This document shows, piece by piece, positions 27,071 through 56,936 of a stretch of 64,000 nucleotides of DNA (positions are counted from its first letter, which is position 1; the number at the start of each line of letters is the position of its first letter). Location of the stretch: positions 541 to 64,540 of the forward strand of contig JBAXKK010000003.1 in NCBI GenBank assembly GCA_037137395.1, read 5' to 3'. Both the position numbers and the translations under genes were made by a program. The notes beneath the pieces are model-generated. The model did not search any database. It had not been told where the DNA came from and saw only the letters and a list, made by a program, of their open reading frames with translations. Origin of the DNA: Elusimicrobiota bacterium (GTDB taxonomy: Bacteria > Elusimicrobiota > Elusimicrobia > Elusimicrobiales > UBA9959).

Positions 27071-27132
27071 GAATTAAGGATTCAGCGGCAAGCGATTCTC
27101 ATTCCTTACTGCCTACTCCCTGCTACTTACTG
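27071..27132. repeat. intercistronic imperfect inverted repeat, AAGGATT word family
   Basis: gaattaaggattcagcggcaagcg / attctcattccttactgcctactccctgctacttactg. Confidence 0.6.
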
Positions 27133-27141
27133 TTTTTTATT

Positions 27142-27918
27142 TCACTTCGCAGGCACAAGTTTATAGCCCACACAGGGCACAGTGTGCACATACTTAGCAG
27201 CCTTCCCCATCTTGGACCTCAGGCGGCGGACGTGGACATCCACGGTACGGGGCGAACCAAAATAGTTATATCCCCAGACGCGCTCAATAAGATAGGGGCG
27301 CGAGAGCACGCGATTGGGCGAGCTCAGAAACACATACAGCAGGTCGAATTCCTTGGCAGTGACCGTGATCTCCTTGTTGGCTATTTTTACGGTGTAACTG
27401 GACATATTGATTTCGACTTCGTTCAGCTTAAGAACCTCATCCGGCTGGGTGCTTACAGTGCGACGAACCACCGCTCGGATGCGGGCGATGCTTTCGTGCA
27501 GGTCCTGATTATAACTAAGGCACTCATCCGCTCCCAGTTGAAAAAAAGCCAGTTTATAGCTGATCTTGGGCGCCTGATGGGCATTATGGCCGCCGTGAGC
27601 GCCATGCCCGTGCTGAACCAAGCTCTCAAGGGTCAGGCCGGACGGCATGTGTTCAAGATAGGTATCCGGCGATTCTAGCATAGCAATGACCGGAATATTT
27701 TTATTTTTCGCGCGGAGATTTTTGAGGAAAGTGAGCCCTTCCTCGTCCGAAAGGTTCTGCCCGATGATGACCAAATCGAAAGATTTTTCAGCCAGCATGC
27801 CCATTACTTCCCGTGCTCTGTGGGCGGTCATGACCGAATAACCCTGCCGGTTAAGCATCTCGAGTATAAGCGAGGCCCGGGAAAAGTCTTTTGCGGCAAA
27901 AATAACATTAATTTTCAC
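27142..27918 (-). CDS. OmpR/PhoB-type winged-helix regulator with a degenerate (pseudo) receiver domain and a His-rich insertion
   Basis: C-terminal Trans_reg_C region (LSRPYLIERVWGYNYFGSPRTVDVHVRRLRSKMG...VGYKL). In the receiver, the DD pair is replaced by AAKD, the phospho-acceptor context DLVIIGQNL has Gly where Asp is expected, and KPF is absent. Insertion HGHGAHGGHNAH. Confidence 0.75.
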   Translation of the reverse strand: MKINVIFAAKDFSRASLILEMLNRQGYSVMTAHRAREVMGMLAEKSFDLVIIGQNLSDEEGLTFLKNLRAKNKNIPVIAMLESPDTYLEHMPSGLTLESLVQHGHGAHGGHNAHQAPKISYKLAFFQLGADECLSYNQDLHESIARIRAVVRRTVSTQPDEVLKLNEVEINMSSYTVKIANKEITVTAKEFDLLYVFLSSPNRVLSRPYLIERVWGYNYFGSPRTVDVHVRRLRSKMGKAAKYVHTVPCVGYKLVPAK

Positions 27919-28081
27919 ATTATCTCCATGCGGCTATTCCAGCTACGCCATAAGCCCTATCTTTAGGCCATACGCAGAAACCTTATGTTAGGCCTTAAGA
28001 ACCTCCTTAAAAGCCTATGGCTTATAGCGGGCGCGGCGCCTTTATGGCTTACGGCTATATTTTTTTGCGACAGCAAAAAAA

Positions 28082-28381
28082 TTACTCGTGTTCGTGTATC
28101 TCTTCGATGTCGAAAGAAACGCCTTTCATTCCAAGAACGCCGGTCAGGATATTGTACAGGAAAGATACAAACACCATAAGCGCGGAAACGATCACGACAT
28201 ATAAAAGCGCGAAAAGCCCTATAGACATCATTTTAGCGCCGATGTTCATCGGCTCTATTTGCGGGTTGGGAACTACCATAAACGTCACTATCCCCCCCAG
28301 AACAGCCAGCGCAAACACTACAAGGGGCACCGATGAGGTTATAAGAGAAGCGACGCTAATGTTTCTGATTTCAAGTTTCAT
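28082..28381 (-). CDS. small two-TM membrane protein (99 aa)
   Basis: MKLEIRNISVASLITSSVPLVVFALAVLGGIV...IGLFALLYVVIVSALMVFVSFLY; ATG 28381 is preceded by GGAGG. Confidence 0.5.
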   Translation of the reverse strand: MKLEIRNISVASLITSSVPLVVFALAVLGGIVTFMVVPNPQIEPMNIGAKMMSIGLFALLYVVIVSALMVFVSFLYNILTGVLGMKGVSFDIEEIHEHE

Positions 28382-28675
28382 GCAAGCCTCCATAATAAAA
28401 ACGCCGGATAGACGCCCGCCCCGCTCTTTTGTCCGCACAATTAAATCCATGCAGCCCGGGCTCAAGATTAACGCCCGACACACAGGACAAAAAGGCGGGC
28501 CTGCGGGGCGCCTGCTTAGTAGATATTATTTTAGCAATTATTTTCTGGAAATAAACGAGAATATCATGAACAAAAGTTGGGAAAGTTACGGGGGCTGCTG
28601 GTTCCTGTTTTCAAACTCTTAATACCGCCGCACCCTGGAGAATTCGCAAACGCTGAAACCCTCAACCGGCTTAAG

Positions 28676-29791
28676 CTACATAGTTATACCCGGTTTCGGA
28701 TAGAACATTATAAGCGTGCGATTCATCTCTGAAGTCTCGCCCACGTGCAGAACCTTGACATTAAGGCTCTGGCCGCGAAACACTGTCTCACCCTCAACAG
28801 GCTGGTTGGGTGTTTCAAAAGCCTGGCCCACGAGGCGCAGGAGGTTCTGCTGTTGGCTGTCAACCACGTCCAATAGGTGAATGTTTTTGGCGTCCCCGCC
28901 CCCGGCGAGCTCAAAATTAGCGTATAGGATATTATTATTCTCGTCGACCACTATCACATATTCGCTTCCCGGCACTATAATGCTTAAAAGGGACCGCCAC
29001 CAGTTTTGTTCGGCGTCCTTGTATTTACGGTCCCTGTTCACAATACCGTCTATCTCCACCTTCATCTTGCTCAGCAGCCGGGCGATGGCGTCGGCCAGAT
29101 CCCCAATCTCGTCTTTTTTTGACGGAAAACGCAGATCAAAGTTTTTAAGCGAGATGGTCTCCACGCTATCTCGGAGAGTCTCCATAGGAGAGATGATGAA
29201 ATGATGGAGGAAGAAGTAGAGGGGCAGGCCCAGCAGGAACAGAACGCCGATGGCGCCGAAAACATATTTGCGCATAGCAACGCCGATCAGGATGTCGGCG
29301 CCGGCCTTGGACACCAATACGTCTATTATGCCGATAATCTCCCCCCGCACGGAAAAGGGGATGGCAATTTCATAAAAAGGCTCTTTTGGCACCTGCCGGA
29401 CCTTGGGCAGTTTTGAAAGATACGCCTGGCCGATAGCATCGGTGGGCGGAGGATAGTCCTTCTGAAAATCGGCCCAAGCCATGCCGATAAAACGAGATTG
29501 CTTATGCCAGCGCACCGTGCCCGCGCGGCTCAGATAAATAACGGAGGCGATGCGCTCGTCTTTAACGAGCGACTGCATTATGTCGTATTCTCCGAATGAT
29601 ATAATCCTGGGGTTCTTGAGAAGTCCGTTGCGCATCGTGGGGGCGTAGACCCTCACAGTCTCAGTGATATCCTTTTTCAGCTTCTCGTCAAAAGTCCATT
29701 TAAAAAGGTTGTAATAGAAAACCCCTCCCAGACAAAGGACATAAATGCCGATCCCGGTAAACCATAAAAGCCATTTAATAGTAAGCCGCAT
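28676..29791 (-). CDS. membrane sensor with periplasmic domain, HAMP and PAS-like C-terminus, no recognisable output domain
   Basis: TM1 WLLWFTGIGIYVLCLGGVFYY, TM2 GAIGVLFLLGLPLYFFL, HAMP ISPMETLRDSVETISLKNFDLRFPSKKDEIGDLADAIARLLSKM. Start set at ATG 29791 behind GGAAGG. Confidence 0.65.
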   Translation of the reverse strand: MRLTIKWLLWFTGIGIYVLCLGGVFYYNLFKWTFDEKLKKDITETVRVYAPTMRNGLLKNPRIISFGEYDIMQSLVKDERIASVIYLSRAGTVRWHKQSRFIGMAWADFQKDYPPPTDAIGQAYLSKLPKVRQVPKEPFYEIAIPFSVRGEIIGIIDVLVSKAGADILIGVAMRKYVFGAIGVLFLLGLPLYFFLHHFIISPMETLRDSVETISLKNFDLRFPSKKDEIGDLADAIARLLSKMKVEIDGIVNRDRKYKDAEQNWWRSLLSIIVPGSEYVIVVDENNNILYANFELAGGGDAKNIHLLDVVDSQQQNLLRLVGQAFETPNQPVEGETVFRGQSLNVKVLHVGETSEMNRTLIMFYPKPGITM

Positions 29792-29897
29792 AATAAAACC
29801 TTCCAGGCGATCCACCGCCCACAGTCAGTCAGGAACTATCTAATTCTACAAAACACGCATTTCAAAATTATTACGAAACAATGAATAAACAACCTCC

Positions 29898-29930
29898 CCA
29901 AAAAACAGAGCCGCCTATCAGGCGGCCCCC
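29898..29930 (-). terminator. intrinsic terminator closing the Tad operon
   Basis: Minus-strand RNA reads GCCGCC-UGAUA-GGCGGC followed by UCUGUUUUUUGG, 115 nt after the TPR gene stop. Confidence 0.75.
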
Positions 29931-30044
29931 CCACAGAAAGCGGTCACGGATAATAATCAGCCTCAAAGCTGCAGCTGCAATTTCGCGGCAAACCTACAAC
30001 CGAATCCCCCGCCCTAACTCGGTCACTAACCACTATCCACTGTC

Positions 30045-31385
30045 TTATTGCCCGCCGGCCTGATATTGCTCTATACGCTTCATACCGGCCTCGGCGTCAG
30101 AATTACCGGGATCCAATTGCTTGGCGATAGTCCACTCATCAAGGGCTTTTTCGTAGTTGGAATTTTGAAAATATTTCAAGCCTTCAAGGTAATGCTGCTG
30201 CGATGACAGCCGGTTCTCCTCAGTCGGGCCCTGGGCTTTGACGGGGCCATCCACGGAAGTTCCCTTTCGCTTGGCGTCCTCTTCCGCTTTTTTGCGCTCA
30301 GCCTCTTCATTCTTCCGCCGCTCTTCCTCATCTTTCGCGCGTTTCGCGGCCTCTTCAGAGCGGCGGCGTTTTTCTTCAGCTTCAAGGCGCATCTGTTCTC
30401 TGGCGCGGGAGATCAGCTTGTCGAGATAGGTGAGGTTTGCGGTGTAAGGCTTGGCTGTGCTCCACTCCCCTATAGCGTCGGTATATCTCCTCTCGCCGTA
30501 AAATTTTTTACCGCGCCCGATATAGCCCTGCTCTATTTCACTCTTAACCTCAGTCAGCAGCTTATTGGCTTTGGAATCGCCAGGCTGGATTTCCAGCACG
30601 CTCTTTAAACCTTCGTAAGCGTCCCGGAGCTTGCCCTGGGCGTAATATTCCAGCGCGCCCTTCAGCTTCTCGTTGGCTGACTCCTGACGAAGCTCGTCCT
30701 CAACCCTGGTAATATATTCCACGACCCTGGAATCTCTGGGCTTAATCAGCAGTGCGTTATAAAAATTATCCAGGGCCATTTTCAGGTCGCGCCTGGCGTA
30801 GAGATGAGAGCCTTTCTGAAAATAATAGTCGCGCAGGTCATCCTTCATCTTGGCCAGCCAGTATTTTGCCTTGATGTTGTTCGGGGAAAGCTTTACTACC
30901 TCTTCCATCTTCTTATGAGCGTCCAGGATCCTGCCCTCGTTGTACAGTGAGAGGGCGCTCTTAAAGCGGTCCTCCAGCATAAGTTTCTCGGATATGCCCG
31001 GGCGCAAAGAGCCGCGAAGCTGATTGGACGCCTCCAGCAGCATGCCGGCGTCCTCAAAATTGGGATCTATGGAAAGGATCTTATTCGCCAGATCGCGCGC
31101 GTCCTCGTAGTTTCCGGCGCGATAATAGTTGAAGGCGTTCTCATAAACATTCATGAGCATCTTGGATTGGATCTTAGCCTTTTCCAGCCTTATGGTCTCA
31201 ATAAAACGTTTTTTCTCCGAAAGCTCGCTCAGTGAACCCAAGCCGGTTTTCTGCAGATCAAGAAAAAGGGACTCCTCACTCTTCACCCGGGCTTTCTCCT
31301 GAGCGAAGGCGGCGGATTGGTGCAGGCACAAAAGCACGAAGGCGCAAAAACACGAGGTGACGGCATTCCTGACAAGATTTTTCAT
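30045..31385 (-). CDS. secreted TPR-repeat protein (TadD-like position) with a charged E/R/K helix
   Basis: Signal peptide; multiple TPR-like repeats (YYRAGNYEDARDLANKILSIDPN, LYNEGRILDAHKKMEEVVKLSPNN, YFQNSNYEKALDEWTIAKQLDPGN); an EAEEKRRRSEEAAKRAKDEEERRKNEEAERKKAEED segment. Confidence 0.75.
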   Translation of the reverse strand: MKNLVRNAVTSCFCAFVLLCLHQSAAFAQEKARVKSEESLFLDLQKTGLGSLSELSEKKRFIETIRLEKAKIQSKMLMNVYENAFNYYRAGNYEDARDLANKILSIDPNFEDAGMLLEASNQLRGSLRPGISEKLMLEDRFKSALSLYNEGRILDAHKKMEEVVKLSPNNIKAKYWLAKMKDDLRDYYFQKGSHLYARRDLKMALDNFYNALLIKPRDSRVVEYITRVEDELRQESANEKLKGALEYYAQGKLRDAYEGLKSVLEIQPGDSKANKLLTEVKSEIEQGYIGRGKKFYGERRYTDAIGEWSTAKPYTANLTYLDKLISRAREQMRLEAEEKRRRSEEAAKRAKDEEERRKNEEAERKKAEEDAKRKGTSVDGPVKAQGPTEENRLSSQQHYLEGLKYFQNSNYEKALDEWTIAKQLDPGNSDAEAGMKRIEQYQAGGQ

Positions 31386-31410
31386 AAAAATTTCCGCCTC
31401 TCCACTGCCG

Positions 31411-32304
31411 CTAGAACGGCATTCCGCCGGTCATCAGGTCCGCTATCATAGGCGACAGCATCAGGATGAACACGGTCGGGAAGATAAAGATAAATAAAGG
31501 GATAAGCATTTTGGTAGAGGCCTGGGCCGCGAGCTTTTCAGCTTTATTCAGACGGCGAAAGCGCATATCCGCAGAGTAGTTGCGCAGAAGCTCCACCAGG
31601 CTGGTGCCCAGCTCGTCCGACTGGATAACCAGGCCCACGAAAGAGCGCACTTCCTGCAGACCCGTCCGCATGGAAAAACGCCTGAGCGCGTCCCGCCTTG
31701 AATAACCCAGCTGAACCTCGTTAATGGTTCGCTCCACCTCAATTTCCAGGCAGGTCTTGATTGGCACGATCTTGACGATCCGGTCAAAAGCGCTCATATA
31801 ATCGAGCCCGGATTCTATCATCAGCGCGGCAAGATCAACGAAGGTCGGGAAATTATGAACGATGTCCTGCTGGCGGGCCCGTATCTTAGGGGAATAATAA
31901 AACACGTCCGGCAGCAGGAAACCAAGCGGAGCGAAGATGATTACGAAATAAGAATCTGTCAAAACATAAAAGATCACGGGCAGGGCCGCGGCCAGCATCA
32001 TCTTGATATGAAGCATCTTAAGCGGGTCGGTATGCACCGGCCGGCCCAGGAGCATATACCGCTCTTCCAGCTTTTTCTCCAGCCCCAGGCCCCTCGCGAA
32101 GAACAGGTCCAGCTTGTCCCAGAAATTTTTGCTCTCCTCCAGCTTTGAAAAAACCGAAACTTCCTTGCCCTCCATATCGCTGACGTCACCTATGGCCGAA
32201 CGCTCCTCCTCTCTGGGAGCAAAGAAGCGCTGCACGGCCGCGGCAACAGCGAAAGATCCGAAGATAGCGAGAAACACCAGAAAATATTTTGTAAAAGCAT
32301 CCAT
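31411..32304 (-). CDS. tadC: Tad pilus inner-membrane platform protein, T2SS-F family (TadC-like)
   Basis: T2SSF-like core FPTFVDLAALMIESGLDYMSAFDRIV...LLRNYSADMRFRR...; 3-4 TM segments. Confidence 0.8.
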   Translation of the reverse strand: MDAFTKYFLVFLAIFGSFAVAAAVQRFFAPREEERSAIGDVSDMEGKEVSVFSKLEESKNFWDKLDLFFARGLGLEKKLEERYMLLGRPVHTDPLKMLHIKMMLAAALPVIFYVLTDSYFVIIFAPLGFLLPDVFYYSPKIRARQQDIVHNFPTFVDLAALMIESGLDYMSAFDRIVKIVPIKTCLEIEVERTINEVQLGYSRRDALRRFSMRTGLQEVRSFVGLVIQSDELGTSLVELLRNYSADMRFRRLNKAEKLAAQASTKMLIPLFIFIFPTVFILMLSPMIADLMTGGMPF

Positions 32305-32474
32305 ATAAATCTTTCCTTAACACACCACGCGGCAATTATTTGCCATATGCCGTAAGCCATTGGCTATACGCAAAAAACAAAAGAACTTCCGGACATATCC
32401 TGGGCTTATACGCCCGACAGCGAACCAATAGCTGTGTCTAAACTTATGAGATCATAGCGCGGAGCTCTATGATC

Positions 32475-34082: not shown

Positions 34083-34112
34083 ACCAAAAGAATCCTTACA
34101 CCACCCTATATC

Positions 34113-36329: not shown

Positions 36330-36338
36330 AAAATTTAA

Positions 36339-37164: not shown

Positions 37165-37177
37165 AGTAATAATCTCC

Positions 37178-37250
37178 AGATTAAGGATTAAGTAGTAAGT
37201 GGTAAGGAATAAACTGCTATGCAGTTAAACCTTAATTCACTTAATCCTTA
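37178..37250. repeat. intercistronic hairpin, AAGGATTAAG family
   Basis: agattaaggattaagtagtaagtggtaaggaataaactgc-tat-gcagttaaaccttaattcacttaatcctta. Confidence 0.7.
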
Positions 37251-38003
37251 TTTTATAAGCCTTTTAAAGCTCGCTATCTCCATGGGGTGCAGCTCCACGT
37301 CTCCGAGACCCCTTACAATAATGGAAACATCTCCGACCTTCATCGAAAGTGAAAGATACTGCGCCTCGTTCGGATTAAGCGACAGGCTTATGACGCCCTT
37401 GTCGGAAAAAGCCTGATCAGCGGCCACCTGGGCTTCTTTCGCTTTAGCCTGGATAGAAGAAACGCCCTGGCCAAGGTTCGTTCCCACTCCCAACACCAGC
37501 ACATTCTGTAGAATGGTTGCGGTCACTTTTTCCTTCCGATTGTCCCCCATAGAGGCTTCAAAGGTCACAAGCACGTCTATCCTGTCGCCCGGTTTTATCA
37601 GGCGCAGCAGTTCGTTCTCCATAGGGAGGACGCAGCCCCGGTAGCCGGGCGGCACTTTAACGCTCAGGCCGGCCTCCGGACTTAAAGAGACGAGCGAAGA
37701 CAAAGTGATCTGGTTGCCCTTGGGAATCCTGACGGCAGTCACAAGATTGGATACCATCTTAATATCGGAAGCGCTTCGGATCTCCTGAGCGTCCTGCTGT
37801 ATGTACTGCCTGGGCATCTGCACAATTTCCACGAGATCTTCTTTAAGAATGGTGCGCGCCGGCAAGTCATACTTTGCGACCAGCACCTGGGCGGGCTCCT
37901 GCGCGTTGGCGATGGCCCGCTCTTTGGATGTCAGAACCCACCAGTAAATACTGGCGGCAAAAATGGCGAGAATTACCGGAACCAGGACACCTTTCTTTTC
38001 CAT
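37248..38003 (-). CDS. cpaB: Flp pilus assembly protein CpaB/RcpC
   Basis: N-terminal TM segment, SAF-like VLVAKYDLPARTILKEDLVEIVQMP, and an RcpC-like C-terminal domain. Confidence 0.8.
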   Translation of the reverse strand: MEKKGVLVPVILAIFAASIYWWVLTSKERAIANAQEPAQVLVAKYDLPARTILKEDLVEIVQMPRQYIQQDAQEIRSASDIKMVSNLVTAVRIPKGNQITLSSLVSLSPEAGLSVKVPPGYRGCVLPMENELLRLIKPGDRIDVLVTFEASMGDNRKEKVTATILQNVLVLGVGTNLGQGVSSIQAKAKEAQVAADQAFSDKGVISLSLNPNEAQYLSLSMKVGDVSIIVRGLGDVELHPMEIASFKRLIK

Positions 38004-38068
38004 GACACATTCTCCTTAGCAAATTATAGAATCCACAGATTACAGCTTTATTAAATAATTAATAAATA

Positions 38069-38139
38069 AGGATTAAGTGGTAAGAATTAAGTTCCAAATC
38101 CCTCTTCATTCTTATTCCATACCGCTTGACCCTTACTGC
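38069..38139. repeat. intercistronic imperfect inverted repeat, AAGGATTAAG family
   Basis: aaggattaagtggtaagaattaag ... ccctcttcattcttattccataccgcttgacccttactgc. Confidence 0.6.
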
Positions 38140-38163
38140 ACATCACCTGCTCATTGCCGCGTC

Positions 38164-38739: not shown

Positions 38740-38759
38740 AGGGTCTCCAATACTTAGAT

Positions 38760-38819
38760 GCAAAGCGATCCGGCAATTTAGAAGCTCATCTGAATTTCTT
38801 TACATCTAAATTGCTTTGC
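38760..38819 (-). promoter_or_regulatory. stem-loop immediately downstream of the flp gene (possible attenuator or mRNA stabiliser)
   Basis: The minus strand reads GCAAAGCAATTTAGA...TCTAAATTGCCGGATCGCTTTGC; no U-tract follows. Confidence 0.45.
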
Positions 38820-39079: not shown

Positions 39080-39128
39080 TTTGCTAGTCCTCCAGTATTA
39101 TTTATAACAATTATATCTAAATTCACAC

Positions 39129-39209
39129 GGATAAGGATTCGGCACTAAAAACTAATTTCCTCAAATCCCTATCACTTACAACTTAATCCTTAACACTTAA
39201 TCCTTATTC
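39129..39209. repeat. intercistronic imperfect inverted repeat, AAGGATT family
   Basis: ggataaggattcggcac ... cctatcacttacaacttaatccttaacacttaatccttattc. Lies between the two flp genes. Confidence 0.6.
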
Positions 39210-40479: not shown

Positions 40480-40499
40480 AAAATCCTCTCGATCTGATT

Positions 40500-40593
40500 C
40501 GTAAAGCGTGAAGCGCAAATCAGAAAGAGTCTAAAACAAATTTTTACAAAATCAAACTTATAACCCTTTACGACTTACGCTTTCCGCTTTACG
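40500..40593. repeat. intercistronic imperfect inverted repeat (CGTAAAG / CTTTACG words)
   Basis: cgtaaagcgtgaagcg ... ctttacgacttacgctttccgctttacg. Confidence 0.6.
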
Positions 40594-40597
40594 CACA

Positions 40598-43759: not shown

Positions 43760-43948
43760 AAAAACCCTTGGGAGTCAAGATTCAAAAGATTCGGCACTTC
43801 GGCGCTGAAACCAAGCATTAATTTCTCAAACTTTAAGCGCGTTCCTATACCGCTTAATCCTTTCTCCATGTTAATTCTGCCATTTTGCCGATACAAAATC
43901 AATGTCATTTAAAAACCGTTAAAACCCCTGATCCGATCCGAAATAACG

Positions 43949-44710
43949 TCAATCGGTTTTCTGCTTGTTTTCCAGAGGCAAGCTTTTCCGGTCACAAAGT
44001 TCTCTCTCCCCCTTGCGCGCGGCGTCAAGGTTGAATTTAGCGACAGAAAGCCGGAACTCCAGATCAGCGGATTTTTCTTCGGCTTCCTTTATCCTTTTCC
44101 CTGAGTCAGCCCTGGCGCGCCTTTCCGCCATTAGTTCGGAAAGAGTTTTTTCCGAAGCTTCTCTGGCGGCTAAAAATTTACGTTCCATAACAACAATCGC
44201 GTCTTTCAGATTGGCTTGTTCCACAACCGATCTCGTGAATTTCTCCCGCCACTCCTCGCTCCTGACCTTAAAAACTTCCAGCCGCGCGGAGAGGTTGGCT
44301 ATCTCTATTCTGGTCCGTTCCAGAACCTCAGTCAGAAGCGCAACCTCGCGGGCATGCCTTCTCTTCTGGGCCTCCAGCATCTTTCCGGACTCTCCCAGGC
44401 TTAAAGCCGCGGACAATTCTTCACTGATGGCTTTTTCCCGCGCCTCCTGACACGACTGTTTAAGCTCGCCGAGTTGCGCGCGGGTATCGCACAGTTGGGC
44501 CGACAGGTCGCGGATGCCGGACTCTTTGACTTCCAATAAATATTTCCAATCGCTTTCGGCCTTAGAAAAATTGTTTTTGAGAAACTGAATAGTTTCAACC
44601 TGAGATTCTGAAAAACGTAAAGACGAAGCAGAAAATTCGGGGATGTAATCCTTCCCCGACGCTTTCTTCCAGAGTTCACCTAATTGTCTGTCTATTTCGC
44701 TGCTTTCCAT
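43949..44710 (-). CDS. cytoplasmic coiled-coil protein (first gene of the Tad operon)
   Basis: E/K/R/L/A-rich heptad-like sequence throughout; no TM segment or signal peptide. Confidence 0.55.
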   Translation of the reverse strand: MESSEIDRQLGELWKKASGKDYIPEFSASSLRFSESQVETIQFLKNNFSKAESDWKYLLEVKESGIRDLSAQLCDTRAQLGELKQSCQEAREKAISEELSAALSLGESGKMLEAQKRRHAREVALLTEVLERTRIEIANLSARLEVFKVRSEEWREKFTRSVVEQANLKDAIVVMERKFLAAREASEKTLSELMAERRARADSGKRIKEAEEKSADLEFRLSVAKFNLDAARKGERELCDRKSLPLENKQKTD

Positions 44711-44714
44711 AATG

Positions 44715-44813
44715 TTAAGGGGTAAGGATTAAGCGATAAGAATTAAGTTCTAAAGCCCTTCTCGCTTACCACTTAATCCTTACTGCTTATCGCTTACACC
44801 TTATAACTAGTCT
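44715..44813. repeat. 5'-UTR imperfect inverted repeat, AAGGATTAAG family
   Basis: ttaaggggtaaggattaagcgataagaattaag ttctaaag cccttctcgcttaccacttaatccttactgcttatcgcttacacctta. Confidence 0.7.
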
Positions 44814-44921
44814 ACCAGCGCGGCGTTGCCCTGTCATGAAATAAATGTTAAAAAAAGGTTACAGGAAGGGGCAGGGGAGGGATTAAAAACTCCGGAGTCC
44901 GCGATCTTCAAATCTTCACAC

Positions 44922-46439: not shown

Positions 46440-46553
46440 GGGGAATCAGTATAAGTTTGCCATTTGCTTTATGCCATTAGCAATTCGCAGAAAAATCAGT
46501 TAACTCCTTAAAGCATATGGCCAACGGCAGCCTTTATCCCGCGTATGGCGCTG

Positions 46554-47735: not shown

Positions 47736-47764
47736 AATTATGAATGAAAATGTTAAAAGTGCTT

Positions 47765-47850
47765 AGAAGGATTAAGCGATAAGGATTAAGTTTAAAAAAC
47801 CTGCTTCTTACCCCATTGCCACTTATTCCTTACCACTTAATCCTTACTAC
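47765..47850. repeat. imperfect inverted repeat, AAGGATTAAG family
   Basis: agaaggattaagcgataaggattaag tttaaaaaac ctgcttcttaccccattgccacttattccttaccacttaatccttactac. The right end abuts the tsaD stop. Confidence 0.7.
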
Positions 47851-48923
47851 TTACCCGGCCAGGAAACTACGGCCAGGTCGGGGGCTATGTCCAGCGACCC
47901 GCCGGTAGCCCGCGCAGCAAGCCGCCTGGCGCCGCAAAGAGCCACCATGGCGGCGTTATCTGTGCAGTAGCGTTTTTCAGCAAATTTAATTTCGTATCCG
48001 GATTTAGCGGAGAGTTCCATGAACTTCCGCCTTAAACGCAGATTGGCGGCGACGCCCCCCCCGACTATCACGCTTTTTATTCCTGTATCAGCGCAAGCCC
48101 TGGCAGTTTTATGGACCAGCGTGTCAGCGACCGCCTCTTCAAAAGCAAGACATATCCTCCCCCGGTCCGCAGGGGACGGGCGCAGTCTTTTTTCATAAAA
48201 ATCGTTGCCCAGCATATCTCTGAGTTTATAAGCCACGGCCGTCTTCAGACCGCTGAAAGAAAAATCAAAACTGTCTTCCATATATGGTCTGGGGAAGTCA
48301 AAGCCGGACGGCCCGGACTTTAAAGCTTCCTTCTCCACCGAAGGCCCGCCGGGATACTCAAGCCCCAGCAGTTTAGCCACCTTGTCAAAAGCTTCTCCGG
48401 CGGCATCGTCCCTTGTGCGCCCCATTACCTTATACCTGCCGTATCCTTCGGCTGTCCAGAGTTCGGTGTGCCCGCCTGAGACGATCAGGCCTATGCATGG
48501 GAATTTGATGCGCCTGGACGCGGTCATGCCCTCATATTCATAGGCCAGAAAATGCCCTTCCAAATGGTTCACTCCCAGAAGTTTGGCGCCTAGAAGCCTG
48601 GCCGCGGCCTCTGCCGCCACTCTGGACACCAGAAGCGCGCCCGGCAGTCCGGGGCCTCTGGAGAACGCCACAGCGTCTATCTTAGGTCCTCTAAGTCGGC
48701 CCCCGACAAAGAAAGGTCTGCGGTAACCGGCCTTCGAAAGAGCGGCGCCTAGCACCCAGGAAATCTTCTCAAGGTGCGCACGGCTGGCCAGCTCCGGAAC
48801 AACGCCGCTGTATTTTCTGTGAAGATCTATCTGGGAGAAAATAATATTTGAGAGCAGGCGGCCGTCATCCAGCAGACAGACCGAGGTCTCATCGCACGTG
48901 GTCTCAAACGCCAGTATTCTCAT
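47847..48923 (-). CDS. tsaD: tRNA N6-adenosine threonylcarbamoyltransferase
   Basis: MRILAFETTCDETSVCLL...SGVVPELASRAH...GVNHLEGH...VSGGHTEL...GGVAAN. Confidence 0.93.
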   Translation of the reverse strand: MRILAFETTCDETSVCLLDDGRLLSNIIFSQIDLHRKYSGVVPELASRAHLEKISWVLGAALSKAGYRRPFFVGGRLRGPKIDAVAFSRGPGLPGALLVSRVAAEAAARLLGAKLLGVNHLEGHFLAYEYEGMTASRRIKFPCIGLIVSGGHTELWTAEGYGRYKVMGRTRDDAAGEAFDKVAKLLGLEYPGGPSVEKEALKSGPSGFDFPRPYMEDSFDFSFSGLKTAVAYKLRDMLGNDFYEKRLRPSPADRGRICLAFEEAVADTLVHKTARACADTGIKSVIVGGGVAANLRLRRKFMELSAKSGYEIKFAEKRYCTDNAAMVALCGARRLAARATGGSLDIAPDLAVVSWPGK

Positions 48924-50356: not shown

Positions 50357-50536
50357 TAATTTCTCCAGTTTTGAGCAAAACAACCCGTAATTATATAGTC
50401 TACAGGCCCGCAACCACCAGTTAGAAACTCAATTATACATCTTTCGCAAGGCTTAAAGCCGTAAGGCTGTGGCCCGAGACCCTTCCCCCGGAGGCGGATC
50501 CGCCGAGCCGTCACATGTTGAACTGAAAGATTCGGG

Positions 50537-51700: not shown

Positions 51701-52497
51701 TGGAAGATTACCCAGGCGCAAACACCTCCGGCGGCTATAATGACCGCCTGTGTCAGCGCCCCCGGCCAAAGCCATAGCGGGCTGAGGTATTTAACGGGAT
51801 AAACAAGCGCGTATGAAACAGCTACGGCGCTAGAGCTGGCCAGGATGCCGGCAAAAAACCAGTTCCGATCGCGCCGCAGGCTTTCCAGCAGACTGGCGAC
51901 AGTGTTGCGATAAAACACCGCCATAAGGGTCATAATCACAAGAGACACGAAGGCGAGGGCCAGTGTGACCAAAATATAGTGCCCGTAAAAAAGAGCGTGA
52001 AGGATGGCTGTCGCCTCAAGCGGTTTATACTTAATGTCGTCCACTCCGTTTATCTTCCAGGCTGCCTCTACCCAGGAACTCAGATTGCCAAGAGCGGATT
52101 CTTGCAGAGATATTTCAAAAGTATCGGGCAGCGGGTTGGCGCCCATATTCATCACCGCGCTCACCAGATCAGGATCTTCCTCGCGCAGCTTGCGCAGACT
52201 CTCGGCCTTGCTTATGAAGGAAACCTCGGCGGTACCTGCCAGGGCTTTGAAGGCACTATCCATATCCCCCGGCTCCGGCTTCACCCTATCGCTCTTGACC
52301 GCCACTATTCGAAAATCTTCTTTTAGTATGAGTGCTATTTCGCGAACCTGAATTCTTACAAAAAGGAGCGCTTCAACCATTAGCGCGCCGGCAAAAACAA
52401 TCAGGAAGACTATTCGATAGCCTTTCCTGTCTTTTTTTTGTTCTTCAATGTTATGAGGATGCTGCGGCTTATGATGTTGCGGATGATGTTCTTCCAT
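51679..52497 (-). CDS. ftsX: cell-division permease-like protein FtsX
   Basis: Topology of TM1, a ~100-aa periplasmic loop, then three C-terminal TM segments; position directly upstream of envC-like and ctp. Start set at ATG 52497 behind GGAGAAAGG. His-rich N-terminus. Confidence 0.75.
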   Translation of the reverse strand: MEEHHPQHHKPQHPHNIEEQKKDRKGYRIVFLIVFAGALMVEALLFVRIQVREIALILKEDFRIVAVKSDRVKPEPGDMDSAFKALAGTAEVSFISKAESLRKLREEDPDLVSAVMNMGANPLPDTFEISLQESALGNLSSWVEAAWKINGVDDIKYKPLEATAILHALFYGHYILVTLALAFVSLVIMTLMAVFYRNTVASLLESLRRDRNWFFAGILASSSAVAVSYALVYPVKYLSPLWLWPGALTQAVIIAAGGVCAWVIFQWKNTHN

Positions 52498-52582
52498 ATA
52501 AAAACCTTTCTCCGGCTGACCAGGGCTCAGGGACTCCATGGAGATTATATAATTTATTGGAGACACCGGAGCGGGAGGTTCG

Positions 52583-52645
52583 GAGAATTAAGGATTTAAG
52601 GATTAAGGGTTATGCCGCTTACCGCATCTTATATCGCTTACACTC
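52583..52645. repeat. imperfect inverted repeat, AAGGATTAAG family
   Basis: gagaattaaggatttaaggattaaggg ttatg ccgcttaccgcatcttatatcgcttacactc. Confidence 0.6.
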
Positions 52646-53547
52646 TACAGCGACTTATCTTTGAATTCCACGGCCGCCACAAAAGGAGAGCGGGAAAGCT
52701 CCCCCACCATATCCACCGGCAGACTGCCAGTGACATCAAAAGCGGTGAACTTAGCGTTTCCGGCATTTTGAGGCAGCCGGAATATGTTTTCGGAAGCGAA
52801 CCCGGTGCCGGCGCTAAGCTGGCGTATGAACTCGGAAACGAATACTCCGGAAAGGGTGCCGCCCGGCGCCCGAAGAGTGAAACGTATGCGTGTCCGGAGC
52901 GGTATGCCGGCGGATTTTTTCTCTATCGCCACCCTGCGCACATGGGGATGCTTATAAATGCTTTCAAGTTTAGAATAGGGCGCCCAGCCGAGCAGAAATG
53001 TTTTTTTTCCGCCGCCCGTAAAGTAAGTTTTCTCCCCGGCAAACCTAAAACCTGTCGCGGAAAGCGCCTTTATCACGGCGGGATATTCGTTCGTCTTGGG
53101 AAGCACAGTTATAAACACATAATCCCCTGCGTTAAAACCAGAGAGGGCGTTGGGGTCCAGCGGATTGACATACGCGGAAAGCGGCCCCCCTTCGTTGGCA
53201 AAAGTGACTTTATAATACTGTCCCGGCGCGGTCTTGACGGCGGGCGCGGGAGCGGGCGCGGGAGCGGGCGCGGGAGCGGGAGCGGAGGCCTTGATTATTA
53301 CTGGCAGCTGATCATTCTTTAAAGTCACTGACAGCAGAGAAGTGGGCGCGTCACGGAAATCGTTCACGTATTTCGGGGTGTTATTGGGATTGCGGTAACC
53401 GTAAGCAGTTTCAACGTAATCCTGGAAAGCAGGGTCAAGATATGGATTTGTATCGGGGGAAGGCGCCAGAAAACCATCATGAGCCGCCGCCCGTCCAAAA
53501 AACAGGCATACGAGAGGGAATAAAACAGCGTACTTTTTAATTTTCAT
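52645..53547 (-). CDS. secreted protein with a (Pro-Ala)n linker, unknown function
   Basis: Signal peptide MKIKKYAVLFPLVCLFFGRAAA and the linker SAPAPAPAPAPAPAPAPA. I recognise no family. Confidence 0.5.
   Translation of the reverse strand: MKIKKYAVLFPLVCLFFGRAAAHDGFLAPSPDTNPYLDPAFQDYVETAYGYRNPNNTPKYVNDFRDAPTSLLSVTLKNDQLPVIIKASAPAPAPAPAPAPAPAVKTAPGQYYKVTFANEGGPLSAYVNPLDPNALSGFNAGDYVFITVLPKTNEYPAVIKALSATGFRFAGEKTYFTGGGKKTFLLGWAPYSKLESIYKHPHVRRVAIEKKSAGIPLRTRIRFTLRAPGGTLSGVFVSEFIRQLSAGTGFASENIFRLPQNAGNAKFTAFDVTGSLPVDMVGELSRSPFVAAVEFKDKSL
53241..53286. repeat. tandem 12-nt repeats encoding the (PA)n linker
   Basis: gggcgcgggagc repeated about 3.5 times. Confidence 0.8.
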
Positions 53548-53850
53548 TCTTGCATCCAAATAATCTGCGCAGACGCCACATCAGAAACAATGACAACCAA
53601 TCGGCCGCAAAAAAAACAAAGAAGCGGGAATATTTTTAAATCCCGTTTCCCCTGGTACCCCGGATTCACAGGCCCGGAGGTGGATGCTCCCTCGCCTCTT
53701 CGAAGGATTACAAGTGGTATATACATATTACCTTCAATGACACATACCCACAAGGCACTTTAGACCCATAAAACCGCCACAAAGAGACCTACTCTAAAAT
53801 AGGCCTAAAGACCTATATGCGCCCGCAGCTGGATTCCATTTAGAAGCGTA

Positions 53851-53947
53851 ACCATTGTCGCTGTCGCATTGTCGTACTGTCTCGCTGCCGCCCTGCCGTA
53901 CTGTCTCGTTGCCGCGTTGTCTCGCTGCCGCCCTGCCGCGCTGTCAG
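53851..53947. repeat. A-poor direct-repeat block (40-nt period) upstream of the efflux operon promoter
   Basis: ctgtctcgctgccgccctgccg (53877-53898) and ttgtctcgctgccgccctgccg (53917-53938) match at 21 of 22 positions, with a degenerate copy between them. Built from the words TGTCGC and TGTCTCG. Confidence 0.75.
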
Positions 53948-53949
53948 TC

Positions 53950-53979
53950 TTGACATCAAAGCTCCGGACCTGTTATAAT
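53950..53979 (+). promoter_or_regulatory. consensus-hexamer sigma70 promoter
   Basis: TTGACA (53950-53955), an 18-nt spacer, then TATAAT (53974-53979); 21 nt before ATG 54001. Confidence 0.6.
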
Positions 53980-53997
53980 TTATCTACCGGTAGGTAA
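53980..53997 (+). promoter_or_regulatory. candidate TetR operator (18-bp palindrome)
   Basis: TTATCTACCGGTAGGTAA differs from its own reverse complement at one symmetric position. It sits between the -10 box and the start codon. Confidence 0.5.
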
Positions 53998-54000
53998 GTT

Positions 54001-55899
54001 ATGAAAAAACAACAAAAAGAAAAAATGACCAAGGGCGATAAGACCCGCCATAAAATACTTGAGACCGCGGTCAGGATGATGTCCGAAAAAGGCCCGGACG
54101 CGGTCTCCATGAGAGAGATATCATCCCACTTGAGGATAACGAAGCCCGTGCTCTATTACTATTTCAAGGACAAAGAAACGCTCATCCGCGCGGCCTTCCA
54201 TGAAGGCACCAGACATTTCCGCGAGCTGGATACGCTGGTACTGGATGAATCCATACCGCTTGAGAAAAAGATAGCCATGATTTTAAGCAATCACCTTAAC
54301 TTTATACGAAAACACCCAAATATGCCCAAATGCGCCCTCAAGATAATAGCCTCACCCTCAGACGGGGTCCTCAGCGGCATGGCCCTTGAAATGAAAAACG
54401 AACACCGGAAAATGCTCAAACAGGTAATTTATGACGCGGCACGAAAAGGCGAGGTTGCAAAAGAGGCCGCCAACGATATATCACACCTCTTAAGCGCCGC
54501 CATGACCCATTTCATCATTGAGGCGAAAGAGAACGGCCTGGCCGCGCTTGATACAGGTATGCCGGCGCGCTTCGCCAGAATAATCTGCGCCGGGGCCAGG
54601 GGCGTCAAAGCCTCGATAGCGGCTTTTTTGATTTCAGCCATGATGATTTCCGGGGCGCGGGCAGCATCCCTTGAACTCAGCCTGCGCGACGCGGTCGGCA
54701 CCGCACTGAGGAATAACGCAACGGTGGTGACCGCGGAAGAGACGCGCCTCATATATAAGGAAAGAGTAAAAGAATATTGGGGCACGGTCTACCCGCAACT
54801 TAGCGCCAGCGGCCAGTATACCCGCAATATCGAGTCTCCCTCGTTCTTCATCGGCGGCAACAAAATAAAGTCAGGGTTAGCCAATGCATACGCCGCCGGG
54901 CTGAACTTGGACCAGGTTCTCTGGGCGGGCGGCAGGGTCTATACGGGAATAAAGATAGCCAACATCTACTCGAGCGCCAGCGACGAACAGCTCAAGACCG
55001 CTCAGAATGGCGTATCCAAGGCGGTAAAACAGATTTATTATTCGGTTCTGCTGGCTAAATCGATGACCGGCATACAGAAGGAATCTCTGGATTTGGCCCG
55101 CCAGCATTTGGATACCATCGAGGCCCAGTACAAGCAAGGCATAGCCAGCGATCTTGCCGTGCTTCGCCAGAAGGTAGAGGTGTCCAACACCGTCCCCGCG
55201 CTGACCCAGGCCCAGAATCTTTATGAAGAAGGGCTGGTAGAACTGAAAAACCTGCTGGGACTGGACCCTGAAACGGATATTTCTCTGTCGGATGGGTTCA
55301 CCTGTGGCGTTCAGGGTCCCGGGGAAATATCCGCGCTCTACAAAACCGCCCTCATGAATCGTCCCGAATACAGCAATATGAGATATCAGCGCGATCTCTA
55401 CAGAGAAATGGTAACAATAGAACGGGCCGGCCACTTCCCACACCTGAGCGCCTTCGCTTCCAGGCAGTTCCAGGGCCAGAGCGACTCCGGTTTCCCGGAT
55501 TCAGGCCATCAGGCCTGGAGCACAATGGCCGGACTCAAATTATCATTGCCTCTGTTCTCCGGCGGCTCTGTAAATTCCCGCACCAGACAGGCCAGACTGC
55601 AAGCCGGTATAGCGGATACAAACCTTAAGGAACTTGAAAGAAAAATAAAGATAGAGGTTAAAAAAGCCTGGCTCAGCATGAACGAGGCTTCCGAAAGGCG
55701 CGAATCGCAAACCACGGCGGTGGAACAGGCCCGCAAGGCGCTGTCCGCTACTGAAGTCAGGTTCAGAAACGGCCTGGCAAGCCAGCTGGAACTCAATGAC
55801 ACTTCTCTGGCTTTAAACAGGTCTCAAACCCTCTATATACAAGCCCTGCACGACACCTGCTCGGCTGACGCGGAATTGAAGTGGACGCTCGGAGAATAA
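54001..55899 (+). CDS. single ORF joining a TetR-family HTH regulator (aa 1-~190) in frame to a TolC-family outer-membrane factor (aa ~187-632)
   Basis: TetR N-terminus TRHKILETAVRMMSEKGPDAVSMREISSHLRITKPVLYYYFKDKETL. From aa 187 there is a signal-peptide-like MPARFARIICAGARGVKASIAAFLISAMMISGARA, then TolC-like repeats (LSLRDAVGTALRNN...; LPLFSGG...). Confidence 0.7.
   Translation: MKKQQKEKMTKGDKTRHKILETAVRMMSEKGPDAVSMREISSHLRITKPVLYYYFKDKETLIRAAFHEGTRHFRELDTLVLDESIPLEKKIAMILSNHLNFIRKHPNMPKCALKIIASPSDGVLSGMALEMKNEHRKMLKQVIYDAARKGEVAKEAANDISHLLSAAMTHFIIEAKENGLAALDTGMPARFARIICAGARGVKASIAAFLISAMMISGARAASLELSLRDAVGTALRNNATVVTAEETRLIYKERVKEYWGTVYPQLSASGQYTRNIESPSFFIGGNKIKSGLANAYAAGLNLDQVLWAGGRVYTGIKIANIYSSASDEQLKTAQNGVSKAVKQIYYSVLLAKSMTGIQKESLDLARQHLDTIEAQYKQGIASDLAVLRQKVEVSNTVPALTQAQNLYEEGLVELKNLLGLDPETDISLSDGFTCGVQGPGEISALYKTALMNRPEYSNMRYQRDLYREMVTIERAGHFPHLSAFASRQFQGQSDSGFPDSGHQAWSTMAGLKLSLPLFSGGSVNSRTRQARLQAGIADTNLKELERKIKIEVKKAWLSMNEASERRESQTTAVEQARKALSATEVRFRNGLASQLELNDTSLALNRSQTLYIQALHDTCSADAELKWTLGE
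54559..55899 (+). CDS. nested candidate: TolC-family outer-membrane efflux protein translated from the internal ATG
   Basis: ATG 54559 gives a 446-aa product with a plausible Sec signal peptide ending ARA-AS, the normal size for an OMF. The SD is weak (AGG only 2 nt upstream). Confidence 0.5.
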   Translation: MPARFARIICAGARGVKASIAAFLISAMMISGARAASLELSLRDAVGTALRNNATVVTAEETRLIYKERVKEYWGTVYPQLSASGQYTRNIESPSFFIGGNKIKSGLANAYAAGLNLDQVLWAGGRVYTGIKIANIYSSASDEQLKTAQNGVSKAVKQIYYSVLLAKSMTGIQKESLDLARQHLDTIEAQYKQGIASDLAVLRQKVEVSNTVPALTQAQNLYEEGLVELKNLLGLDPETDISLSDGFTCGVQGPGEISALYKTALMNRPEYSNMRYQRDLYREMVTIERAGHFPHLSAFASRQFQGQSDSGFPDSGHQAWSTMAGLKLSLPLFSGGSVNSRTRQARLQAGIADTNLKELERKIKIEVKKAWLSMNEASERRESQTTAVEQARKALSATEVRFRNGLASQLELNDTSLALNRSQTLYIQALHDTCSADAELKWTLGE

Positions 55900-55965
55900 G
55901 AAGTGATAAAGAAATAAGTTTAAAACTTTATATTTAATTGTTAAAGCTTTCACCATGGAGAATTT

Positions 55966-56874
55966 ATGAAAAATATTAAAACTATAAAACCATTAACTGC
56001 CGGATATTCGCTTATTTTAACGGCTGTCCTTATGACAACAGGCGGATGCAAAAACAAGGACCTGGAAGCTTTCAACAACCTTGAAAAAGACCGCTTCCTT
56101 GTGAAAACCGAAAAAGCCGTGATAAAAAATATAGAGGACTACCTTATACTAGTGGGGTCGATAAAAGCCATGGACGAAGCCGTGCTTTACCCCCGGGTTT
56201 CAGGCAAGCTTTTAAAAAATCTCCTTACCGACGGCGACGCGGTAAAAAAAGACCAGACGGTAGCATTGATCGAACGCGACGAGCCCGGCGTGGTTTACGA
56301 AGCGGCTCCGGTCCCCTCAACCCTTAACGGGGTCATCGGCCGCGTATATCAGGACACAGGGGCCAGCGTCACCCCCCAAACGCCCATAGCACTGGTGGTG
56401 AACCAGGACCAGGTGCGGGTGGTGGTAGATGTGCCAGAGCGCTACGTCGCCAAAGTTTTCATCAACCAGATCGCTTATATTAAAGTTGACGCTTTTCCCG
56501 AAACGCTTTTCCGCGGCAGGGTCTACAGGGTCAGCCCCGTGGTGGACACAAAATCAAGGAGCTCAGTCATAGAGATCCTGGCCGACAACTCCAAAAATCT
56601 GCTTAAATCCGGCATGTTCGCCGAGATACGGCTGGTTGTTGGATTCAAGTCCGAAGCCTTGGCCGCACCTTCGGCCGCCGTACTCCGGGATGAAAAAGGC
56701 CGCCCCTACATCTTTGTGCCCATGAACAATGTGGCTGTCAAACGCAATGTTACGACCGGCATCAGCAACGGAGATTATGTGCAGATCTCCGGCGGATTGA
56801 AAGCCGGGGATATGCTTATAACCTTCGGCCTTTACGGCCTAAAGGACGGAAGCAAGATCAAAATACAGGATTGA
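55966..56874 (+). CDS. RND efflux periplasmic adaptor (MFP), lipoprotein
   Basis: Lipobox LMTTGGC; a HlyD-like barrel-sandwich and beta-barrel (VKKDQTVALIE...VDVPERYV...FRGRVYRVSPVVD...). Confidence 0.88.
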   Translation: MKNIKTIKPLTAGYSLILTAVLMTTGGCKNKDLEAFNNLEKDRFLVKTEKAVIKNIEDYLILVGSIKAMDEAVLYPRVSGKLLKNLLTDGDAVKKDQTVALIERDEPGVVYEAAPVPSTLNGVIGRVYQDTGASVTPQTPIALVVNQDQVRVVVDVPERYVAKVFINQIAYIKVDAFPETLFRGRVYRVSPVVDTKSRSSVIEILADNSKNLLKSGMFAEIRLVVGFKSEALAAPSAAVLRDEKGRPYIFVPMNNVAVKRNVTTGISNGDYVQISGGLKAGDMLITFGLYGLKDGSKIKIQD

Positions 56875-56876
56875 GC

Positions 56877-56934
56877 GGTAAATTGTAAAAAGTAAAAACT
56901 TAACCCTTATCATTTAATTCTTGCTACTTACCTA
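56877..56934. repeat. word-based spacer (GTAAAAA / CTTAAC, CTTAC words) in the plus-strand operon
   Basis: gtaaattgtaaaaagtaaaaac ttaacccttatcatttaattcttgctacttacc. Confidence 0.45.
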
Positions 56935-56936
56935 TT

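Follow-up and report, generated by a model that had tools for sequence, protein, structure and literature searches.

The DNA considered here is a stretch of 64,000 nucleotides (nt), called the window throughout, from an Elusimicrobiota bacterium (assembly GCA_037137395.1, contig JBAXKK010000003.1, positions 541 to 64,540 of the forward strand), in whose gene spacers an earlier note, made from the sequence alone, had pointed out a word family recurring at ten sites. All ten hold an element, and the purine-rich arm, A/T-rich loop and pyrimidine-rich arm described in that note are present at every one of them, the copies at 52583 and 56877 being degenerate. The words AAGGATTAAG and CTTAATCCTT make up a single family, and AAGGATTAAG was found 26 times in the window with at most one mismatch, as against 4.77 ± 1.9 expected (none of 100 shuffles reached 26). 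Each element begins on the left with an array of the form (NNNTAAG)n, the purine-rich or R arm, continues with a short A/T-rich spacer and ends on the right with an array of the form (CTTANNN)n, the pyrimidine-rich or Y arm. That is, three to nine tandem 7-bp units are followed by a complementary run. Further matches to the 10-mer at 43853, 44087 and 51233 are single words and not elements, the first being conserved in the closest relative and the other two lying in coding sequence. No match to Rfam was obtained at the gathering threshold anywhere in the window.

The genome, referred to as G000, amounts to 2.70 Mb in 174 contigs and is 13% intergenic, with gene boundaries taken from a crude ORF (open reading frame)-based calling; relatives are labelled G001, G002 and so on, G001 being the closest one and a congener. 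The first copy (3884–3985; R arm at about 3884–3926, Y arm at 3937–3985) occupies the spacer between the ribosomal protein genes rplR (L18) and rpsE (S5) and has an RNA fold of −31.1 kcal/mol (z −5.3), and the second (5519–5612; R arm 5519–5562, Y arm 5571–5612; fold z −3.05) lies upstream of rpsH (S8). A short TAAG-type foldback separates two response-regulator genes (27072–27132). In the tad pilus operon, copies are found between the rcpC/cpaB gene and the secretin gene (37179–37253; fold z −5.2) and between a tadE-like gene and rcpC (38057–38138), and the foldback at 39115–39209 in the flp/tad region has an R arm that is weak and a CTTA arm (39168–39209) that is strong. The copy at 44713–44806 (fold −36.7 kcal/mol, z −5.9) belongs to the leader of the gene at 43949–44710, where it stands between the start codon and an upstream block conserved in all congeners, and the one at 47763–47856 (fold z −5.7) lies between tsaD and a solute-binding-protein gene, its Y arm encoding the last codons of tsaD together with the TAG stop. 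The degenerate copies are located by an ftsX-like gene (52594–52660; R arm ATTTAAGGATTAAGGGTTATG, irregular CTTA arm) and between a membrane-fusion gene and acrB in an RND efflux operon (56869–56940), with the CTTA arm entering the acrB start codon. The placement given in the note, namely in 5′ untranslated regions, between cistrons and against stop codons, is borne out, for instance at 3888 (rplR/rpsE), 47765 (tsaD stop) and 56877 (acrB start). No strand is assigned to the foldbacks.

The 7-nt tandem periodicity of the arms, and the many sister families that share it, are the part of the anatomy that was missed in the first reading. Throughout G000, distances from one TAAG to another peak at 7, 14 and 21 nt (423, 311 and 296 occurrences, against 78, 87 and 93 in a Markov shuffle), and Tandem Repeats Finder gave 489, 181 and 56 repeats with these same periods, compared with 71, 10 and 2 in shuffled sequence. 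Periods near 7 yielded almost nothing, except for period 8 (31 versus 0 in the shuffle). Period-7 arrays were collected with a strict lag-7 detector and with a looser threshold, each run against a shuffled genome, resulting in 203 arrays versus 0 and 557 versus 19, respectively. The 557 arrays represent 161 canonical units and are 80% intergenic; CGTAAAG (60) and the GCCATAN group lead the list of units, and AAGGATT makes up 9 of the 557. TAAG/CTTA chains, defined as at least three units, form 120 arms at 85 loci, compared with 3 in the shuffle, and 107 of the 120 arms are intergenic, the genome-wide enumeration being one of the checks that the earlier note had proposed. These roughly 85 TAAG loci are a small part of the approximately 360 heptamer loci of G000 (359 counted), which fall into at least 23 families, and about 40% of the arrays have an inverted partner.

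Tandem arrays of period 8 or 16 are also in excess, with examples in the window at 23071–23101, 38787–38817 and 53861–53943. Furthermore, 34 of the 359 heptamer loci sit at contig edges, and in G001 the end of contig C43 and the start of contig C102 break exactly at the TAAG foldback orthologous to the 47765 copy. Such repeats therefore fragment short-read assemblies.

Because an inverted repeat reads alike from either strand, the order of its arms represents an intrinsic polarity. The TAAG arm precedes the CTTA arm in 31 of the 31 two-armed TAAG loci of G000, and over the 23 families with at least three paired loci each the R-to-Y order was observed 108 times and the reverse order never, the first arm being purine-rich at 91 of these 108 loci. 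A phylum-wide pattern scan, which took in 201 genomes, returned 211 R-to-Y matches per strand, from 10 genomes and at least eight families, and 0 Y-to-R matches. Moreover, among arrays of five TAAG units (TAAG×5) from other phyla, the paired ones showed the same order by 7:1, the lone exception being made of the self-complementary unit CTTAAGA. Such absolute polarity (211:0, 108:0) is left unexplained if the arrays are taken as pure simple-sequence by-products, that is, as tracts that grow by slippage with 7 nt as the favoured unit and acquire an inverted partner through template switching, with neither a trans factor nor mobility. The healing of a double-strand break through telomerase-like 3′ addition to each of its ends, which would give the observed polarity, was also considered, and no direct support for it was found.

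The two arms are independent arrays that use a common pool of units, and they are not mirror copies of each other. The duplex energy of the R arm is −18.8 kcal/mol with its own Y arm versus −20.5 kcal/mol with the Y arms of other loci, and permuting the units does not worsen the pairing (mean z −0.1, with the real order better at p<0.05 in 0 of 28 loci). Both TAAG arms take their variable triplets from a single pool (GAT > TGG > TGA, TAG > TTG). The cross-locus and permutation tests thus rule out both mirror copies produced by palindromic duplication and arms paired by selection.

The elements of the window fold stably (z −3 to −5.9), which they do because of their shared TAAG/CTTA cores, and they could accordingly be regarded as RNA hairpins selected by the host, i.e. 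as intercistronic processing or stabilizing stems (3′ protection as by repetitive extragenic palindromes, REPs, or RNase III sites), terminators or attenuators. The gene context fits such a role, in that heptamer elements are enriched in co-directional spacers (85% versus 70–75% expected) and depleted in divergent ones (6.2% versus 13–20%, p 4e-5 to 1e-12). The stems of intervening sequences (IVSs) in 23S rRNA are RNase III substrates (PMC4990558), which would fit as well. In addition, the upstream stop codon lies inside the first arm in 29 of 123 paired loci and within 10 nt of it in a further 38 (67 together). TAA or TAG is carried by 65% of the first-arm units versus 23% in the other orientation, and stop codons recurring with a 7-nt period provide stops in all three frames. 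The strand, however, makes no difference to folding: the better-folding strand is the sense strand at 44 loci and the antisense strand at 45 (p 0.82), and on this account an mRNA hairpin under selection was dropped as a candidate. There is no G·U signature in the element folds relative to transcription, and a T-run follows the stem in 9 of 89 loci on the sense strand versus 14 of 89 on the antisense strand, i.e. there is no U-tract signal. Single TAAG arms number 18 on the sense and 23 on the antisense strand, so that the strand bias relative to transcription for which the earlier note had proposed a check is absent. The arms, as said, pair no better than permuted or foreign ones, and in congeners these junctions are either empty or occupied by something else. 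An intrinsic terminator was rejected on its A/U-rich stems, its missing U-tract and the copies inside ribosomal operons; that copies stand between essential, co-transcribed ribosomal genes makes terminators unlikely. The median position of the elements within their spacers is 0.47. Taken over the G000 loci, the strand, U-tract and pairing tests gave no sign of host selection on RNA structure, and we consider this explanation improbable.

The comparison across related genomes that the note had suggested revealed a patchy family, whose orthologous sites are kept, replaced or empty. TAAG pattern hits number 103 in G000, 19 in the congener G001 and 0 or 1 in five other congeners; outside the genus, there are 85 in G010 (another genus) and 48 in G031. 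Copies change by insertion and deletion (indel) of whole units, and orthologous sites lose them, gain them or come to hold another family instead. With respect to the orthologs in G001, the 5519 copy differs by substitutions and an 8-nt indel, and the 27071 copy by a 7-nt indel. Exactly two R-arm units (14 nt, ATTAAGTGGTAAGA) of the 38069 copy are missing from its G001 counterpart, and the 37178 copy is 21 nt longer in G001, including a 14-nt Y-arm indel. Whole replacement by another heptamer family was seen at 3888, 44715, 46440 and 32305; the 3888 spacer of G001 carries a family with the unit GGCTGNN, and at the 44715 position unrelated R-to-Y repeats are found in G001, G002 and G006. In the spacer at 47736–47846, the genes abut in G002 (an empty site) and a TAGGGTA foldback is present in G008. 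G001 lacks a 52-nt element that stands at 55900.

Slippage by whole units is therefore a fact at these loci, as the indels between orthologous copies show, and it speaks for simple-sequence by-products, as do a perfect (GCCGTAA)×8 array in the window where G001 has only two to three units and the near-random order of units within arms. In the account of Mrazek et al. (2007) as it is cited in PMC4679880, heptamers are the commonest long simple sequence repeats (SSRs) in many bacteria, and 7 nt is proposed as a favoured slippage unit. Slippage leaves unexplained, besides polarity, that one unit vocabulary is used at 85 dispersed loci and in distant genomes, and that three related genomes nearly lack arrays. 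On balance we regard slippage on its own as unlikely to account for the elements.

As the earlier note had held, copies share a vocabulary and differ in sequence. No near-identical TAAG copies exist in G000; shared unit runs of four occur between TAAG copies 6 times versus 0.9 expected, with an otherwise near-random unit order. With so slight an excess of shared runs and no near-identical copies, recent copy-and-paste in the TAAG family was rejected. Composite modules of GCCAT/CGTAAAG form a 63-member cluster. No target-site duplication was found at the 52-nt insertion at 55900, nor at 47736 when the filled site was compared with the empty one. These data bear on the possibility that the elements are REPs, bacterial interspersed mosaic elements (BIMEs) or REPINs mobilized by a REP-associated tyrosine transposase (RAYT, a Y1 transposase), or MITEs (miniature transposable elements with inverted repeats) derived from insertion sequences. 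The elements are indeed small, intergenic, hairpin-forming and numerous, and G000 has four Y1_Tnp (PF01797) genes. Each of these is nevertheless flanked by its own non-heptamer repeats, a conserved 20–40-nt palindrome with a GTAG head is missing from the elements, and no transposase-bearing parent was found. This origin is thus very unlikely, and the assertion of the note that the elements are neither classical MITEs nor REP/BIME sequences stands, given the lack of duplications and the different repeats around the Y1 genes. The note was likewise correct in denying target duplications and an adjacent transposase, and mistaken in denying terminal inverted repeats, as the arms are long inverted terminal arrays.

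The Y1 genes themselves (C47:4631–4954, C4:35198–35527, C17:9668–9997 and C46:6146–6475) are RAYT-like, with short repeats of their own such as ATATACTGTCCCCGGAACT and AAAAGGTAGACGCTACCTTTTT, and three of the four have a conserved upstream hairpin, CCCCGACA(N5–7)TGTCGGGG. A different, MITE-like element, about 200 nt long and ending in the inverted repeats GGAGCCTGTCCGACATAAGC...GCTTATGTCGGACAGGCTCC, occurs in a spacer of G008 (L014) and one of G003 (L015), orthologous to window positions 46440 and 44711. Next to the 44715 copy, the block at 44808–44870 (GTCTACCAGCGC...GTTGCCCTGTCATGAAATAAATGTTAAAAAAAGGTTACAGG) is kept in all congeners upstream of the gene at 43949–44710, and the adjoining foldback is rewritten in each genome; the block probably serves this gene as its promoter or leader.

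A protein-coding gene was found in association with arms of this kind. The lone strong PF05635 (S23p) gene of G000 (C76:12003–12335, E 2.4e-36) sits exactly between CGTAAAG and CTTTACG arrays, the whole element extending over C76:11948–12386. CGTAAAG is the most abundant heptamer family of G000, and its array at this locus also supplies the stop codon of the upstream gene. The encoded protein matches the pentameric Xanthomonas S23p structure 2GSC (XCC0516) with an E value of 2.4e-30, and PF05635 is homologous to Avd, the accessory protein of diversity-generating retroelements (DGRs) (PMC10053308). PF05635 genes are present in 15 of 24 genomes of the family, in 2 of 2 of the sister family and in 0 of 14 of the family f2. 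Among 28 PF05635 genes fetched from relatives, 17 have flanks whose inverted complementarity to each other exceeds the 95th percentile of cross-locus controls, and by eye about 20 of the 28 are enclosed, each by its own unit. Applied to G000, the same cutoff is passed by 1.6% of all genes, or by 3.4% if only genes with a spacer on each side are counted (p 2e-18 against 17/28), and the genes in question are Y...gene...R cases located between two separate foldbacks. The upstream flank is the more purine-rich one in 25 of the 28 PF05635 genes. Some of the PF05635 genes of relatives are enclosed by arms with an 8-nt period.

The association extends to the TAAG unit itself: in G140 and G134, PF05635 genes lie between TAAG and CTTA arms, and in G022 such a gene follows a TAAG arm. 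Moreover, of 120 loci drawn from many phyla and chosen solely for holding a TAAG×5 array, 3 have a PF05635 ORF at a distance of 0–27 nt and in the expected orientation, and these include a metagenome-assembled genome (MAG) of the Elusimicrobiota and one of the Alphaproteobacteria. G001 has two PF05635 genes, one with CGTAAAG and one with GCCATAA arms, which are the two leading families of G000. The ORF-bearing element is about as conserved between G000 and G001 as its flanks, and its recent horizontal transfer between these genomes was accordingly rejected. In the protein tree, the TAAG-armed proteins of G140 and G134 are sisters (99/95), and further arm-matched pairs cluster, with AATGAGT, GGCTGAA-type and GAGTCTN arms. 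For close protein pairs from different genera, the sharing of arm units is higher than for the remaining pairs (0.61 versus 0.47 on heptamer profiles, permutation p 0.0002). In a small sample of related genomes, the heptamer load per 100 kb is 0.0 in G021, 0.5 in G017 and 1.0 in G014, which have no PF05635 gene, and 10–18 in G000, G001, G010 and G033, which have 1–8 stand-alone PF05635 genes. Neither the enclosure of PF05635 genes nor the co-clustering of proteins and arms is explained by slippage.

We favour, at a rough probability of 0.55, the reading that the ten sites of the window belong to one TAAGNNN family, which would be the ORF-less miniature form of elements carrying an S23p/PF05635 gene between like arms. 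Several observations weigh against it. The PF05635 gene of one locus (L177 in G020) has the pyrimidine-rich arm first, and about 97% of the TAAG arrays in other phyla have no adjoining PF05635 gene. A global Mantel test of protein against arm similarity based on 6-mers was not significant (r 0.04, p 0.26), and G002 has a heptamer load of 15, yet its only PF05635 domain is fused to a beta-propeller ORF. The G000 assembly holds no TAAG-armed PF05635 gene, and distant TAAG...CTTA pairs occur there 9 times versus 10 for the reversed order; a search for TAAG-armed cargo genes in G000 also found none. We know of no nuclease or transposase activity of PF05635 proteins, and the PF05635 gene could be cargo, or its position a preferred landing site, with the protein not being the agent.

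The fused domain of G002 (L167, G002:C11:219030–222332) has similar counterparts in G006, G008, G031 and G033, each an open frame of about 1170–1200 aa with an N-terminal PF05635 domain followed by a PQQ/BamB-like beta-propeller, and represents either a conserved fusion or a read-through. In G000 itself, a reverse transcriptase (RT) gene (PF00078, 532 aa) lies immediately downstream of a gene (142 aa) with a weak PF05635/Avd-like match at C52:11795–14012, a pair whose predicted products and order have the layout of a DGR. As this is the single RT of G000 and shows no link to the arrays, RT as the array generator was rejected.

If the ten sites are indeed miniature relatives of S23p-bearing elements, the heptamers would be putative recognition units for the PF05635 ring protein (an Avd-like pentamer), oriented to the centre of the element in the way of multi-site transposon ends. 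Both the polarity and the non-mirror arms would be explained by this orientation of the units. Repeated recognition sites that point inward at both ends are known from Tn7, and inverted termini made of tandem repeats from the Drosophila Foldback elements. The ORF-less copies may be kept or spread in trans, or may be deletion derivatives. Transcribed elements would fold into long imperfect stems, which would probably be cut by RNase III as in IVSs. The reader protein and the recognition role of the units are what we infer from the gene–arm association. A wider proposal is that S23p/PF05635 paralogs are the trans-acting partners, each reading its own 7-nt unit, that the gene within convergent arrays is an autonomous IVS-like element, and that ORF-less foldbacks (Xanthomonas GGGAATC, cyanobacterial-type and TAAG) are its non-autonomous progeny; this we put forward tentatively, as a possibility that we doubt more than we believe.

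Alternatively, the arrays might serve as binding sites for some host regulator that has nothing to do with PF05635. A ribbon-helix-helix protein, the omega repressor of pSM19035, reads 7-bp heptads on DNA, and HutP, a ring-shaped RNA-binding protein, reads UAG at 7-nt spacing. A TAAG core conserved at 7-nt spacing with three variable positions is what such a protein might require, the excess of TAA or TAG in first-arm units would suit a reader of the HutP type, and orientation-dependent binding could explain the polarity. HutP is, however, absent from G000, and for this reason a HutP-type reader of UAG was rejected. Furthermore, 161 units are too many for one sequence-specific regulator, and the rapid loss or replacement at orthologous sites disfavours conserved regulatory sites. 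Regulator-binding arrays are thus highly improbable.

The earlier note had not recognized a described repeat class. This does not hold at the level of kind, since convergent GGGAATC heptamer pairs are on record for Xanthomonas (PMC4692102) and tandem heptanucleotide families of a like sort for Geobacter (PMC2700814), and a known family that matches was what the note itself had named as refuting its view; as a family, TAAG is new. Like the GGGAATC repeats of Xanthomonas and the GGGGA(C/T)T repeats of Nostoc (PMC4692102), the elements consist of 7-nt units with fixed and variable positions, with few units per array and hundreds of copies, occur preferentially between aligned ORFs and seldom between divergent ones, and vary in unit number among relatives. 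In Xanthomonas, the heptamers have a non-coding bias and are rare between divergent ORFs, and pairs are always convergent (PMC4692102), with the purine-rich array always first, as here. Xanthomonas GGGAATC repeat #15 spans the start of XCC0516 (table of Rehm et al. 2015, PMC4692102), which, like the heptamers ahead of the Coxiella S23p ORF described below, is in line with the favoured reading. In contrast to the G-rich units of Xanthomonas and Nostoc, TAAGNNN is A/T-rich and has no G-tracts, therefore no G-quadruplex is possible; G-quadruplex potential is a trait of those families and not of the architecture. Another difference from Xanthomonas is that at least 23 families coexist in one genome, that of an uncultured host.

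The ORF-bearing IVSs of 23S rRNA have the same architecture as the S23p-enclosing elements. In Coxiella and Leptospira (Warrier et al. 2016, PMC4990558), the IVS forms an inverted-end stem around the S23p ORF, as does the element at C76:11948–12386. Ahead of the ORF in the Coxiella IVS stand tandem purine-rich heptamers, (GACAGAT)×3, which differ in number from strain to strain and at the first of which RNase III cuts; the distribution is sporadic and the IVS is suspected of being selfish or mobile (PMC4990558). Unlike IVSs, which reside in helix 25 or 45 of 23S rRNA, the elements described here lie between protein-coding genes, and the ten window copies are ORF-less. The TAACTGA repeats of marine Beggiatoaceae, Cyanobacteria and Bacteroidetes (MacGregor 2015, PMC4679880) are likewise intergenic, stop-bearing heptamers, often before start codons, with a patchy distribution suggesting horizontal spread. 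Their sets, though, are nearly all direct and made of one fixed unit (169 direct, one indirect), whereas the units here are degenerate and about 40% of the arrays have an inverted partner. The likeness to REP/BIME/REPIN sequences with RAYT is that of small intergenic hairpins in hundreds, non-autonomous copies outnumbering gene-bearing ones; the differences are that there is no GTAG-headed palindrome, RAYT link, target-site duplication or recognizable transposase, and that the associated gene encodes a four-helix-bundle ring protein. Heterocystous cyanobacteria have short tandemly repeated repetitive (STRR) sequences with units such as CCCCAGT, among others, which resemble the present arrays in period and intergenic location only, the units being different.

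Other repeat families are also represented in the window. The ribosomal-protein operon contains a foldback with TTAGTGN and CACTANN arms (9001–9085) and one of the GATTYAA/TTRAATC family (10661–10738). The perfect single-armed (GCCGTAA)×8 array lies at 15616–15671 on the plus strand, adjoining a small-RNA locus; it looks like a recent expansion, because the two to three units that G001 has at this site, which are degenerate, are the only ones there. A copy of the CGTAAAG/CTTTACG family, the same that encloses the PF05635 gene on contig C76, is found at 40497–40594. The element at 55900–55954 is a small R-to-Y foldback right after a stop codon and a clean insertion relative to G001. Past the 5519 element, a supposed spacer of 372 nt contains, at 5620–5805, a short minus-strand gene, conserved and unannotated, which is probably rpsN/rpsZ (S14), passed over by the gene caller.

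For the host, the elements are most likely selfish or near-neutral. They fill operon junctions, supply stop codons and break assemblies, and they can pass for regulatory hairpins or small-RNA genes. We know of no established cause for the excess of heptamers in bacteria, and of no function for S23p, a protein whose structure has long been solved. If the wider proposal on S23p/PF05635 paralogs as trans-acting partners is true, it would bring together three old puzzles, namely the intervening sequences of 23S rRNA, what S23p does and why heptamers are in excess. It would also define a class of mobile or self-propagating elements without a recognizable transposase, perhaps relying on a polymerase or reverse transcriptase as partner in the manner of Avd. 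Through the polarity, the independent arms and the enclosure of S23p genes by arms whose unit follows the phylogeny of the protein, the heptamer puzzle and the S23p puzzle become a single hypothesis that is testable at the bench.

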